A stretch of DNA of 64,000 nucleotides from a candidate division KSB3 bacterium (lineage in GTDB: Bacteria; Moduliflexota; Moduliflexia; Moduliflexales; Moduliflexaceae). Below the pieces are notes generated by a model. That model had not been told where the DNA came from and made no database searches. It saw only the letters and a program-made list of their open reading frames with translations. The stretch covers positions 123,643-187,642 of the forward strand of contig PDSJ01000010.1 of the NCBI GenBank assembly GCA_002748425.1, written 5' to 3'. Position 1 is the stretch's first letter, and each line of letters opens with the position of its first letter. A program made the position numbers and the translations under genes. Below, in pieces: positions 3,844 to 26,085 of the stretch.

Positions 3844-6332
3844 TGGAAGGGAGAGAATGACTTCAAAAAATCCGTTACCAAAGGTGATAAAGGGTGCCCG
3901 AAAGTTCTCTCCATATTGTCCTCTCAGCAGCTGCAGTTTGATTTCGCGCAGGGCCTTGACCGCATTCAAGCCTTGCTTGAGATAGAAAAACATGCCGGCG
4001 CTGATGCCTTTAGCGGATACCGAGTCCACAGACCAGAGTGTGACAGTGGTTGTCATAGTGCCGGCATACATAAAATCCCGCGTGAGGCCCATGATCCCCT
4101 TTCCCTTGCGAAATGTCCCCCGCCCGGTATTGCAGGTCGCAGGTCGAGAAGACATCCGACATTAGAAGGAGATCGTCGGATAAAATCAGAGCCGGTTGGT
4201 CGAGAAGGCTGATTTGTCTAGGAATAAGACCGTGCATCGAAAATAGAAGATGCTGATAATCGTCCAGACTGCCCTGACTGTTCATATGCAACAGGTTCGC
4301 GCGGGACGCGTTTCCCCGAAGCTGCAAGGGTCGGCTGTCTACCGGGGCTTGGAACAGTTCTGCAACCAGTCGAGCTTCTTCCTCGGTCTCCGGAAGCTCG
4401 TTAATCTTTCCGCCCTGAAAGGCTGAGACCACCGATTGAAGTTGTGAGGCTCTTGTGGCTGTTTTGTCTAGGCGTTGATAGAGTTGTTGATGCTCTGGAT
4501 AGGCAAAGGCCAGAAAAGGATAGCGGGAGGCCGGAGCAGCCTACAGCGTATATGAGGAGTTAACAAAAGGCTTTTCCTGGGCGGGAACCGGACTATACTC
4601 GCGCTCGACCGTGCTGTCGATATAATCTGACAGCATGGCGTGGCGCATATCCGCGACTTGTTGTTGAATGGCGTATTCTCCCAATCGGGAGAAGGTACAT
4701 CTGCGTCTGCTGCGTCCCAATGAGCCACAGTATCGTATTTTCCGACATCACATGATACGCCAGCATCAGTTCGTCCGGACGCAGTGTACGGGAGCGGAGT
4801 TCATTTAGGTCGATCGGCTGAGGAAATCGCAGAGCGTAGTACTCAGGGCAGCGGCTCTGCAGTGTGCTGCGTAATGTGCGCTCTTCGCCTTTAAGGGCGG
4901 TAATTCGCCGTTCTAATTCCGTGACTCGCTCAAGCGTCTGCCGGGGGCGAGCAAGTTCGTCCGACAGGTTGTGCTGCATCTGATCGAGCTGTATGCCGAG
5001 TTGTTCTTCGCGCTGGCGAAGCTTATTCGGAACGCCTGCAAAACGGCGGGTGCCGGTTTTGCCCATTTGCTCCAGGAACACGCGTCTCTGTCTGTGTTCG
5101 AATATTTCAAAGGCTTTGCGGTCGTAGCCCTGCCCCGGGTGCTGCTTGGTGCAGTCGGCCCAACAGCGCGAGAAACGCATCATACACCTCGAATTTAGTA
5201 CCCATCACGTTCCGGTAGTCATTGCAGACACGGAATTCAGCGCGTAAGTGTTCGATATGCCCGATCGCCTGTTCATAATGCTGTACGGCCTCCTAGTCGC
5301 GTTGGCGTTCTACTTCTGCGGCTGCCAGCCCGCTCAGTGCTTCCCAGAGTATACTGCGAGGCTGAAGACACCCTCGCCGAGGCGTACACTGCTGTTAAAG
5401 GCGTCATGCACCTGCTGCGTTTTGCCGAGCAGTGCGTAGAGCTTGCCTATCTGCATCAATGAAGTGCTTTGACGCCTCGGCTCCCCTATGGACAGAGCGA
5501 GAGATAGAGACTGCTGAAAGGCCTCCATGGCTTCCTGCATCCGGCCATTATCACGATAAACCATGCCGATCCCCGTCAGGGTCCCGGCCTGCCCCCGGGG
5601 ATCGTTCAGGGTACGCCTGAGCGTCAAGGCATTCTGGTAAAAATCCAGCGCTTGTTCATAATCGTATTGCTTCCGATAGACGACCGCGATATTATTAAGC
5701 GTAGCGGCTTCGCCGCGCCGGTCGCCGACTGTTCGTTTGGCCTTCAGCGCCAACGCGTAATACGACAGTGTTTCGTCATAGTGGCCGAGATGCCAGGAGA
5801 TCGCGCCGATATTGCTGAAGATTCGGCCCTGGGCGCCGATGTCCTGAAGCTGCTCTCGGATCGTCAGCGCTTGACGGTAGCTGTACAGGGCTTCCTGAAA
5901 ACGTCCCCGGCGTTCATACAAATCTCCAATATTGTTCAACACATCAGCCTCCAAGTCGCTGCGCCTAAGCTGCCGATAACGTGCGTGGGCCTGCTGGTAA
6001 TGTTCTAGGGCGGAGAGATCTTCACCAGCGTAAAAGTGAGCGATGCCAAGGTTGGCGAACGCGTGGCCTTCATGTTCAGTCTGCCCGAGCAGATGAGTTA
6101 GGGAAAGGCTCGGGCGATACGCGTCCAGCGCGTCTTCATATCGTTCGAACTCTTCGGACGCCCAGCCCAGCGGATATAGAAACACGCTGATACGCTGTAA
6201 ATTTTTAGAACGCCGGGCTTCTTTCAGGCCGGCTTGCCAAGCTTTCAGGGCAGCGGCGTAGTCTCTACTCTTGAAGGTGGCCTGGCTGTTTTCGCCAAAC
6301 TGGCATAGCACTAAAAGGTATAATTTATGCAT
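3625..6332 (-). pseudogene. Disrupted TPR-CHAT (caspase-like peptidase) gene: TPR repeats 5334-6332, linker 4593-5183, CHAT His region 4010-4432, CHAT Cys region 3870-4155
   Basis: The 332-aa fragment carries tandem TPRs (LNNIGDLYERRGRFQEALYSYRQAL, LNNIAVVYRKQYDYEQALDFYQNAL). The 196-aa fragment has the pre-CHAT motif ELMLAYHVMSENTILWLIGTQ. The 140-aa fragment has LPETEEEARLVAELFQ...YQHLLFSMHGL (His motif). The 176-aa fragment has ATCNTGRG...GLTRDFMYAGTMTTTVTLWSVDS...FRAPFITFGN (Cys motif and C-terminal signature). Fragments sit in different frames; manual translation of 5184-5333 shows several in-frame stops. The C-terminal frame runs 220 nt into the CsgG-like gene on the other strand. Confidence 0.55.
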
Positions 6333-23019: not shown

Positions 23020-23586
23020 TTATAATCTGATCTCCGACAGAACCGTGTATTCAGGGCCGCGAGGTCTGAGTTCGCTTTTGAGCAGGAAGATACTGCGAAC
23101 AGAAAGCTCTCCAACCCAGACGTTGACCATTGATTCGATGGCGCGCAGCAGCGTACTGTGGTTCTTCTGAGAACGAACCCGTCCAAGCGTTAAGTGGGGT
23201 TGAAAGCGCTCTCTTTCCATGTCAAAGCCGAGTTGAGCCAGACCGCCTGATACGGATGACTGAAGTGTTTTTAAACTGCCGCTGTCGTCATCAGTTACCC
23301 CAATCCAGATCACACGCGGAAAACGAATATTTGGAAATGCGCCTGCATAGCCGATTTGCAGCTGAAACGGGGCGAGATCCTGAACACTGCTGAGGATAGC
23401 GCTGACAAGTTCATCGAGCTGTTTTTCCTCGATGTTTCCAAGAAATTGAAGGGTTAGGTGAATGTTTTCAGGAGCTGTCCAGGAGACATGGGCCTCCGAC
23501 TGCTTAAGCTTATCCTGGATGGCTTGCAGCTTTTCCTGAATGTCTCCAGGAATCTTAATTGCGATAAAGGAGCGAATGACTGCCAT
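23020..23586 (-). CDS. thpR: RNA 2',3'-cyclic phosphodiesterase (2H phosphoesterase, LigT/ThpR)
   Basis: Two HxTx motifs: HLTLQFLG and HLTLGR. Confidence 0.75.
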   Translation of the reverse strand: MAVIRSFIAIKIPGDIQEKLQAIQDKLKQSEAHVSWTAPENIHLTLQFLGNIEEKQLDELVSAILSSVQDLAPFQLQIGYAGAFPNIRFPRVIWIGVTDDDSGSLKTLQSSVSGGLAQLGFDMERERFQPHLTLGRVRSQKNHSTLLRAIESMVNVWVGELSVRSIFLLKSELRPRGPEYTVLSEIRL

Positions 23587-25424: not shown

Positions 25425-25589
25425 TACAGATGAAAATTTTAGCAGGGGAATGGTATTCCCAGTTATGAGAAAATGTTTCTGTCTGCAAATATGTTATGTA
25501 GATATCAGAATACATCGTGAAAACCCTGTCAACAAATATGTTCCATAATCTGAAAAAGCCAGAAAAGTTTTTCAATATCAAATTTTTTC

Positions 25590-25619
25590 TTGACTAAAAT
25601 GCTCGTGTTCCTGTGTAAT
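25590..25619 (+). promoter_or_regulatory. Sigma70-like promoter for the tRNA gene
   Basis: TTGACT (25590-25595), 18-nt spacer, TGTAAT (25614-25619), about 13 nt before tRNA position 1. Confidence 0.45.
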
Positions 25620-25632
25620 GGATACTGTTGAT

Positions 25633-26039
25633 GGGCCGTTAGCTCAGTTGGGAGAGCAGCTGACTCTTATGTAACGGGAGCCCCATGCAGTAATGAATGG
25701 GTGAACATTCGGCTATATGCTAGGACGTCCTGAGAGCCTGGACTACTTCCTTAGAAGTAAAAATGTTCAGGATTGGATAATTAGCAGGCAACCCTTACAG
25801 CGTACCGGATTTGCTGTGAAGTGATTTTTCTAAGGCGAAATTGCAGACGCAGTATTCCAGCAGAACGATGGTATGTCTGTGAGGAAGCCCTCAGAGGCCA
25901 TACGCCGAACATCCGACCAGGTTAAGCTGAGGATGATGAAATGGTCCAGACCGCAACATCGCTACTATGATGGATGGCTGTACGAAAGGCAGTGCGGCAG
26001 GTAATCAGCGGGTCAAAGGTTCGAGCCCTTTACGGCCTA
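25633..26039 (+). tRNA. Split tRNA, anticodon CUU (Lys-like): 5' exon 25633-25667, 3' exon 26002-26039, interrupted in the anticodon loop by a 334-nt insertion
   Basis: 5' exon GGGCCGT-TA-GCTC-AGTTGGGA-GAGC-A-GCTGA-CUCU. 3' exon UAA-TCAGC-GGGTC-AAAGG-TTCGAGC-CCTTT-ACGGCCT-A. All four stems pair: acceptor 7 bp with G1-U72, D stem GCTC/GAGC, anticodon stem GCTGA/TCAGC, T stem AAAGG/CCTTT. U8, A14, G18G19, the G15-C48 pair, T54-T55-C56 and A58 are all present. Confidence 0.65.
25668..26001 (+). ncRNA. Candidate group I self-splicing intron in the tRNA anticodon loop
   Basis: The 5' exon ends in U, which can wobble-pair with the G of an internal guide sequence GGGAG 9 nt into the insertion (P1: CUCU/GGAG). 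The insertion ends in G (omega G). No ORF, no target-site duplication. Core P/Q/R/S elements could not be verified by eye. Confidence 0.4.
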
Positions 26040-26045
26040 TTTAGT

Positions 26046-26085
26046 GAGAAGCCACGAATTCATTGTGAATTCGTGGCTTTTTTCT
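26046..26085 (+). terminator. Rho-independent terminator after the tRNA
   Basis: GCCACGAATTCA-TTGT-GAATTCGTGGC perfect 12-bp stem followed by TTTTTTCTTT. Confidence 0.65.

Follow-up and report, generated by a model that had tools for sequence, protein, structure and literature searches.

The number of known types of group I intron in bacterial tRNA genes rose from 4 to 21 with the work of Williams (2020; bioRxiv 10.1101/2020.01.27.920355), whose seed alignment holds the tRNA-Lys introns Lys.2Ug, Lys.3Ug and Lys.4Ug. A survey of 4,934 complete genomes has since yielded 333 tRNA group I introns, located at nearly every position of the anticodon loop (Nakagawa et al., 2026; PMC13011429). According to that survey, insertion between anticodon positions 35 and 36 is seldom met with outside Patescibacteria, the total being 28 cases, of which 25 belong to subgroup IA, and in-vitro self-splicing was demonstrated for introns at this site in tRNAs other than the one considered here. 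The present work concerns an insertion at the same position in a 64,000-nucleotide (nt) stretch of DNA from a candidate division KSB3 bacterium (the window, whose plus-strand coordinates are used for all features unless indicated). We consider it highly probable, with a likelihood of roughly 88%, that the window carries a functional tRNA-Lys(CUU) gene with a group I intron between positions 35 and 36 that is devoid of any open reading frame (ORF). From its sequence, the intron very probably removes itself by splicing, and the tRNA gene probably still works.

An intron of this kind was already catalogued in 2020 and 2026, and the window thus provides a new example rather than a new phenomenon. 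A sequence-only reading of the locus had stated that bacterial tRNA group I introns were known in only a few isoacceptors, lysine not being among those named, a view made outdated by the two works mentioned; it had also regarded 334 nt as long for the class, but an intron of 327 nt is present in a Bacteroidota tRNA-Lys gene, and tRNA introns of up to 1817 nt have been reported. In the portions of Table 1 of Williams (2020) and Table S5 of Nakagawa et al. (2026) that were covered, no example of a tRNA-Lys(CUU) intron at 35/36 is listed. Any novelty would be modest and would lie in the isoacceptor (CUU), in the phylum (KSB3), in the occurrence at 35/36 of an intron that is not of subgroup IA, and in its patchy distribution although no homing endonuclease is encoded. 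Mohanta et al. (2017; PMC5733544) described a “group I intron” of 37-49 nt in the tRNA-Lys(CTT) gene of a Gloeocapsa; it was discarded as a precedent, since a group I core does not fit into so short an insertion.

The 5’ exon (25633-25667, 35 nt) comprises the acceptor 5’ strand, the D arm, the 5’ strand of the anticodon stem and C32, U33, C34 and U35, and the 3’ exon (26002-26039, 38 nt) comprises U36, A37 and A38, the 3’ strand of the anticodon stem, the variable loop, the T arm, the acceptor 3’ strand and the discriminator A. When joined, they give a 73-nt tRNA containing GACUCUUAAUCAGC, identified by ARAGORN as tRNA-Lys(ctt), in which the anticodon loop is restored as CUCUUAA, with anticodon CUU; the predicted unspliced precursor is 407 nt long. 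The coordinates proposed for the split gene were exact, its halves being identical (73/73) to an uninterrupted gene found in a related locus, L030, which scores 66.3 bits on RF00005. The dinucleotide TA is present at each junction (25668-25669 and 26002-26003), which leaves a 2-nt ambiguity in the boundaries at the DNA level. The choice with U25667 as last base of the 5’ exon, U25668 to G26001 as intron and U26002 as first base of the 3’ exon is preferred because it is the only one that provides both a U(-1).G pair and an omega-G while reproducing the intron-less sequence. The gene escapes standard annotation: default ARAGORN found no tRNA over the whole 64-kb window, and Rfam at gathering thresholds gave no match in it.

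The insert (25668-26001) matches the Rfam group I intron family RF00028. With permissive filters, model positions 1-253 were aligned end to end to 25657-25964 with 36 bits (E = 1.4e-7 for the region and 1.6e-5 for the entire window, in which no other Rfam match reached E <= 0.01). The helices were derived and their complementarity was checked pair by pair, and every element of the core, from P3 to P9 and including a candidate guanosine-binding site in P7, could be modeled. P1 (25664-25680; supported by the cmscan alignment and the pair check) is formed by the exon sequence CUCU plus the first intron U (25664-25668) and the internal guide GGGAG (25676-25680), with the wobble pair U25667.G25677 at the 5’ splice site. 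It is followed by the P2 hairpin (25682-25701), in which CCCAU-G-CA pairs with UG-A-AUGGG and the loop is a GUAA tetraloop (25690-25693). In P3, UUCGGC (25708-25713) pairs with GCCGAA (25904-25909), and the latter strand closes the P3/P7 pseudoknot. P4, P5, P5a and P5b extend over 25718-25786 (25718-25723/25781-25786, 25728-25730/25775-25777, 25737-25740/25768-25771 and 25745-25749/25754-25758, respectively), P4 being UGCUAG / UUAGCA. P6 with its peripheral extension spans 25787-25889; its base pairs GGC (25787-25789) with GCC (25887-25889), and the extension of around 90 nt (25793-25884) makes up the bulk of the extra length of the intron. The P7 5’ strand (25894-25899) reads G-(A)-GGCC, A25895 being bulged, and its partner is GGUCC (25943-25947); next to the bulge, G25896-C25946 would constitute the guanosine-binding pair, which we take to be the equivalent of G264-C311 in Tetrahymena. 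P8 (25910-25935) consists of CAUCC (25910-25914) / GGAUG (25931-25935) with an inner CAG/CUG, and the segment formed by J8/7 (AUGAAAU, 25936-25942) and the P7 3’ strand, 25936-25947, was aligned by cmscan to the Rfam consensus AAGAUAUAGUCC. The P9 domain (25951-26001) has three parts, namely a CCGC/GCGG stem (25951-25954/25994-25997) and two hairpins (25957-25972 and 25977-25993), the second with a GAAA tetraloop (25984-25987); this layout is also found in Mle24.Lys.3Ug and in the IC3 representatives of Williams’ alignment. The domain ends in omega-G26001, which is the final base of the intron if the two exons are put together to match the intron-less allele. An unconstrained minimum free energy (MFE) fold recovers P1-P6, P4 and P5 among them, and P8.

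No ORF longer than 57 amino acids was found on either strand of the intron. The longest overlapping one runs into the exon and the terminator, and a homing endonuclease ORF was not found within the intron; neither terminal inverted repeats nor a target duplication were seen on reading the insert. The wobble pair and the omega-G at the splice sites, together with the lack of an ORF and of a target-site duplication, had been pointed out in the sequence-only reading and hold up here.

Covariation was analyzed in several alignments, with controls in which the pairing partners were slid and with 500 shuffles per alignment. Across seven homologues (A4), 87.6% of the cells were paired, versus 35-43% in the slid controls, and 37 pairs had changed on both sides, versus 6-14 after sliding, with none of the 500 shuffles reaching the observed values. 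In this alignment P2, P3, P4, P5, P7 and P8 were 97.8-100% paired: all seven pairs of P2 had changed on both sides (97.8% of cells paired), as had 4/6 in P3 and 3/5 in P8 (100% paired in both); P4 and P5 were also 100% paired, and so was P7, where one pair had changed on both sides and another on one side only. With four sequences (A1) the figures were 89.9% of cells paired versus 33-44%, and 27 pairs changed on both sides versus 8 at most, values reached by 0/500 shuffles (1/500 for further pair types). When the window was aligned only with its intron-bearing relatives L041 and L042, the cloverleaf being included (A6), 95.4% of cells were paired versus 35-45%, and six pairs had changed on both sides versus three at most; here 3-12 of the 500 shuffles reached the observed values (210/500 for further pair types). 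P1 is invariant in L041/L042, and the stem of the P6 extension still pairs in L041 despite an identity of 58%.

Relatives were obtained as loci fetched around PgpA homologues; a PgpA scan of the GTDB representatives gave a best match of 48%, the lineage of the window being missing from that collection. In L030 (PgpA 80% identical to that of the window), which shares the PgpA-CinA-LigT-RACo synteny, an uninterrupted tRNA-Lys(CUU) gene lies beside PgpA, with exons identical to those of the window (35/35 and 38/38). The gene is also uninterrupted, with identical exons, in L039 (PgpA 73%) and in L043/L044 (PgpA 69%), where it is located around 2.9 kb upstream of PgpA. The same split gene, with a homologous intron at the same site, is present in L041/L042 (PgpA 69%), from two NCBI assemblies; the introns are 78% identical over around 330 nt, and that of L041 scores 35.9 bits on RF00028. 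The flanks of the window are 82-89% identical to L030, and neighboring proteins are 66-78% identical. That the exons are identical while the flanks have diverged points to purifying selection on both exon halves, which would mean that the cell still uses the split gene and that its intron is removed. Between the window and L041, identity reaches 94% in the core (25885-25950) and 88% in P3-P5, compared to 58% in the P6 extension and around 60-66% in the intergenic flanks, and conservation of the core over the flanks is the pattern that would be expected of a ribozyme under selection. In addition, the T stem of L041 has changed from AAAGG/CCUUU to GGGGG/CCUCC by compensatory substitutions. The boundaries, the group I architecture, its covariation, the intron-less allele and the occurrence of a homologous intron at this position in another lineage are all established by computation, and the identification of the insertion as a group I intron, advanced from the window alone, is thus borne out by the end-to-end RF00028 alignment, the core helices P1-P9, their covariation and the intron-less alleles.

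An intrinsic terminator, a hairpin of 17 pairs followed by a T tract (26046-26082), was detected by scan and is kept in L030 with compensatory changes. Upstream, a putative promoter (25590-25619) has a -35 element TTGACT (25590-25595) after an A/T tract and, with an 18-nt spacer, a weak -10 candidate, TGTAAT (25614-25619). The -35 element and the A/T tract are identical in L030 and present in L041/L042. The sequence-only reading had proposed both a sigma-70 promoter and a terminator; the latter is confirmed, and for the former the -35 is conserved, but a strict sigma-70 scan reported no promoter site at the tRNA gene.

Taking these elements together, transcription of the precursor would begin at the conserved TTGACT promoter and stop at the terminator. 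The intron would then fold into a group I core in which P1 presents the U25667.G25677 pair, the P3/P7 pseudoknot builds the binding site for guanosine at G25896-C25946, beside the bulged A25895, and the GUAA (L2) and GAAA (L9) tetraloops dock the periphery. Free guanosine is expected to attack after U25667; omega-G26001 would subsequently enter the same site, the 5’ exon would attack after G26001, and U35 would be ligated to U36, restoring the loop CUCUUAA.

Several observations weigh against this interpretation. Transcription, self-splicing and the mode of spread of the intron are matters of inference. The -10 candidate is non-canonical, its second base not being A; on RF00028 the intron reaches 36 bits, under the Rfam gathering score of 50; the MFE z-score is just -1.7; there is an A.C mismatch in P3 of L041; a convincing P10 with the 3’ exon could not be drawn by reading the sequence; and the search for a second tRNA-Lys(CUU) gene was confined to the window. 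With respect to the score, the Rfam seed holds no bacterial sequence, and cut-offs of 18-20 bits have been used in a tRNA context (Williams, 2020). The sub-threshold score, the lack of an evident P10 and the confinement of the tRNA scan to the window, rather than the whole genome, are also what could be expected if the insert were a former group I intron that had lost splicing, leaving a pseudogene backed by another tRNA-Lys gene. The Logan assembly of run SRR6011892 could be read in the same direction, since its contigs L001 and L038 end inside the exons, at 25659 and 26012, around one k-mer into the tRNA, which a second copy could explain. These break points suggest several genomic contexts for the exon sequence in that sample, be it a second copy or a related strain, and they are silent on whether the intron is present in that other context; reading them as a sign of an intron-less second copy was rejected, since multiple exon contexts in the sample are all that they show. 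A decayed gene is nonetheless hard to reconcile with exons that are 100% identical to intact orthologues between diverged flanks, with a catalytic core retaining 94% identity to L041 versus around 60% in the flanks, with compensatory T-stem changes in L041, as expected of a tRNA in use, or with core helices that are all intact in the window, and we regard it as improbable.

Even less likely is that splicing takes place one base upstream, after a C(-1) and with G26000 as omega-G, which would produce a tRNA with anticodon CGU (Thr). This is the outcome given by the intron search of ARAGORN, which finds the 334-nt intron with its junction 1 nt leftward and calls the gene tRNA-Thr(cgt), and cmscan also places the consensus splice-site U at C25666; moreover, tRNA introns with C(-1) have been catalogued (Leu.3Cg). 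Against these indications, the intron-less orthologues read CUCUUAA, with anticodon CUU, only the U25667/G26001 boundaries combine U(-1).G and omega-G with that sequence, and boundary shifts of this type by ARAGORN and tFind have been published (PMC13011429). It could also be argued that the insert is not a group I intron at all, but another mobile element or an assembly chimera in the anticodon loop, given that the window comes from a metagenome-assembled genome and that the junctions are not bridged in the Logan assembly of that run. Such a proposal is very hard to sustain in view of the homologous insert at the identical site in an independent pair of assemblies (GCA_024449855.1 and GCA_024449835.1), of the full group I core with covariation and of the insert itself, with no ORF and with no terminal inverted repeats or target duplication seen on reading. 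A functional tRNA-Lys(CUU) gene with a self-splicing group I intron is therefore the explanation we favor.

In a neighbor-joining tree based on PgpA, CinA and LigT (823 aligned positions), the window groups with L029 and with the intron-less L030; L041, which has the intron, belongs to another clade together with L031. Intron presence is thus patchy, and to account for it the intron must either have been lost precisely, at least twice, or have spread horizontally with no homing endonuclease involved. L029, L031 and L045 have no tRNA-Lys gene adjoining PgpA, indicating that the tRNA locus has been rearranged several times in this lineage.

The tRNA gene has chromosomal neighbors: PgpA, CinA, LigT and RACo are encoded to one side of it, and to the other a CBM9-domain protein, AsnB, Wzy and a glycosyltransferase. 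The PgpA protein shows 100% identity to an NCBI entry under the name candidate division KSB3 bacterium, which derives from a metagenome-assembled genome. A distant blastn search of the locus against a phage database gave just one match, 37 nt of tRNA in a Listeria phage. The gene for the LigT / 2’-5’ RNA ligase-family phosphoesterase (23020-23586, minus strand) lies two genes away from the split tRNA; since the order PgpA-CinA-LigT-RACo is kept in all relatives, with or without the intron, no link between LigT and splicing is indicated. The divergent intergenic region between PgpA and the tRNA contains a 19-nt block, CCCTGTCAACAAATATGTT (25527-25545), which is identical in L030 amid diverged DNA and may be an operator or promoter element of pgpA or of the tRNA gene. 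As to the tRNA, its first acceptor pair (25633 with 26038) is a G1.U72 wobble, somewhat unusual in a bacterial elongator tRNA; it is invariant in the window, L041 and L042, and also present in the intron-less L030, L039 and L043, their exons being identical. Finally, c-di-GMP-I-GGC riboswitch matches were found in L029 (4148-4228, minus strand) and L030 (3187-3296 and 3435-3509, plus strand), upstream of genes for an RHS-repeat protein and a PEP-CTERM/exosortase-domain protein in these related KSB3 genomes; scores of 69.8 and 64.2 bits are over the gathering score, and one tandem match has 55.8 bits.

The known splicing mechanism is unchanged by these results, and their value lies mainly in annotation. 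Since default ARAGORN and Rfam at gathering thresholds miss the gene, and ARAGORN in intron mode assigns it to threonine, a KSB3 genome of this type would appear to be without tRNA-Lys(CUU) or to have a spurious tRNA-Thr, and such miscalls distort completeness and codon-usage inferences. In L041 (2345-2740, minus strand) and L042 (274-669, minus strand), the ARAGORN intron search calls the homologous split gene tRNA-Thr(agt) and places an intron of 303 nt at position 32, also a boundary miscall of the type described in the literature. Beyond annotation, the locus extends the picture of group I introns spread across many tRNAs and nearly every anticodon-loop position, to which it adds a further candidate phylum, an isoacceptor (CUU) and, at 35/36, an intron outside subgroup IA. 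The patchy presence in KSB3, together with a close relative shifted by one base in tRNA-Lys(UUU), offers a small natural test case on the persistence, movement and loss of group I introns that lack an endonuclease.

The relationship with described introns was ranked by local alignment score, taking as reference the maximum obtained with shuffled sequences (47). The sequence-only reading had expected a member of subgroup IC3, which is probably wrong: the classical IC3 representatives score 27-55 (Aol6 27, Rur1 34.5, Sel1 55), that is, at the level of shuffled sequences, and the nearest relatives, tRNA-Lys(TTT) introns at 34/35, are labeled IB2 (Actinomycetota) and IB4 (Bacteroidota) in Table S5 of Nakagawa et al. 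(2026). An intron in tRNA-Arg(TCT) labeled IB3 scores 58.5. The classical IC3 introns (cyanobacterial tRNA-Leu(UAA), Azoarcus tRNA-Ile(CAU), Agrobacterium tRNA-Arg(CCU)) share with that of the window a site in the anticodon loop, a compact ORF-less ribozyme, a P2 with a GNRA loop and a P9 with a GAAA loop, but their sequence similarity is at noise level, and J3/4-P4 reads UAUA-UGCUAG in the window and AAA-UUCGGGG in IC3. Higher scores correspond to bacterial 23S rRNA introns from metagenomes, in L033 (92; positions 1-1222) and L032 (83.5; positions 5782-6022), whose P3-J3/4-P4 and P7/J8-7 strings are almost identical to those of the tRNA intron, with ACAUUCGGCUAUAUGCU (L033 only), CAGAGGCCAUACGC and GAAAUGGUCC; they differ in their rRNA host and in the P1/P2 and P9 peripheries, and with 61.6 (L032) and 72 bits (L033) on RF00028 they are over the gathering threshold. 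The L033 intron leads into an ORF in which a LAGLIDADG-like motif, ILVGLLLGDGHLE, is found. The core-pattern scan of metagenomes from which these two loci came also yielded L034 and L035, discarded as chance matches in protein-coding DNA, and L036 and L037, AT-rich introns of mitochondrial nad5 type too divergent for alignment; a viral core-pattern scan gave no matches.

Two groups of introns are found at the same position as that of the window. Those of Patescibacteria tRNA-Asn and tRNA-Asp (Nakagawa et al., 2026), for which precise in-vitro self-splicing was shown, are likewise missed or miscalled by standard tRNA finders, but they reside in other tRNAs of another phylum and are of subgroup IA, in which additional helices are inserted between P7 and P3. 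In the window intron, just four nt, AUAC (25900-25903), separate the P7 5’ and P3 3’ strands, too few for the P7.1/P7.2 helices that distinguish subgroup IA, which were not found there; the nearest relatives are labeled IB. The second case is Mpe6.Lys.4Ug (Williams, 2020), at loop position 4, equivalent to 35/36, which has in common with the window the tRNA-Lys host, the insertion position, U(-1), omega-G and the GGGAG guide. Its host anticodon is however apparently UUU, according to the P1 strand CUUUU, and its core is of the classical IC3-like kind (AAAUUCGGGGAAC...GUAGAGGCCAGAC), with a local score against the window intron at the level of shuffled sequences (48; null maximum 47).

The closest system is formed by the introns located at 34/35 of tRNA-Lys(UUU) in Actinomycetota and Bacteroidota, where this ribozyme family is otherwise found in the literature covered. 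Mle24.Lys.3Ug is the nearest published relative (local score 116, 75-76% identity in pairwise comparison), and the family includes three tRNA-Lys(TTT) introns from Table S5 of Nakagawa et al. (2026), namely the Actinomycetota copies and the 327-nt intron of the Bacteroidota genome GCA_951812585.1. They share with the window intron J3/4-P4 (UAUAUGCU), the P5 internal loop (UGAGAGCC...GAUUGG), the R and S core elements, a three-part P9 domain ending in GCAGCAGG or GCGGCAGG, a guide ending in GGAG and the lack of an ORF, with compensatory changes in P2, P3, P4, P5, P7, P8 and P9.0. The P6 extension of the window is without counterpart in the Actinomycetota copies, and a long P6 insertion is present in the Bacteroidota copy too. 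The window intron differs in its host isoacceptor (CUU instead of UUU), in its site (35/36 instead of 34/35) and in its phylum. A single guide may account for the change of site: in the Lys(UUU) relatives covered, the guide ending in GGAG pairs with C32, U33 and U34, the wobble at the cut being U34.G, whereas in tRNA-Lys(CUU) C34 forms a Watson-Crick pair with that guide G and the next guide G wobbles with U35. The same GGAG would therefore pair with CUU/u or CUCU/ (the slash marking the cut), and in the CUU isoacceptor the U.G wobble falls one base further 3’, giving the 35/36 site. We tentatively propose, as a possibility that is well short of even odds, that one ORF-less lineage moved from position 34/35 of tRNA-Lys(UUU) to 35/36 of tRNA-Lys(CUU) with its guide unchanged, and that within KSB3 it was repeatedly and precisely lost or spread horizontally by an endonuclease-free route, for example reverse splicing or recombination through exon homology. 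If true, this movement between lysine isoacceptors would represent a natural retargeting of a group I intron, with mobility independent of an endonuclease.

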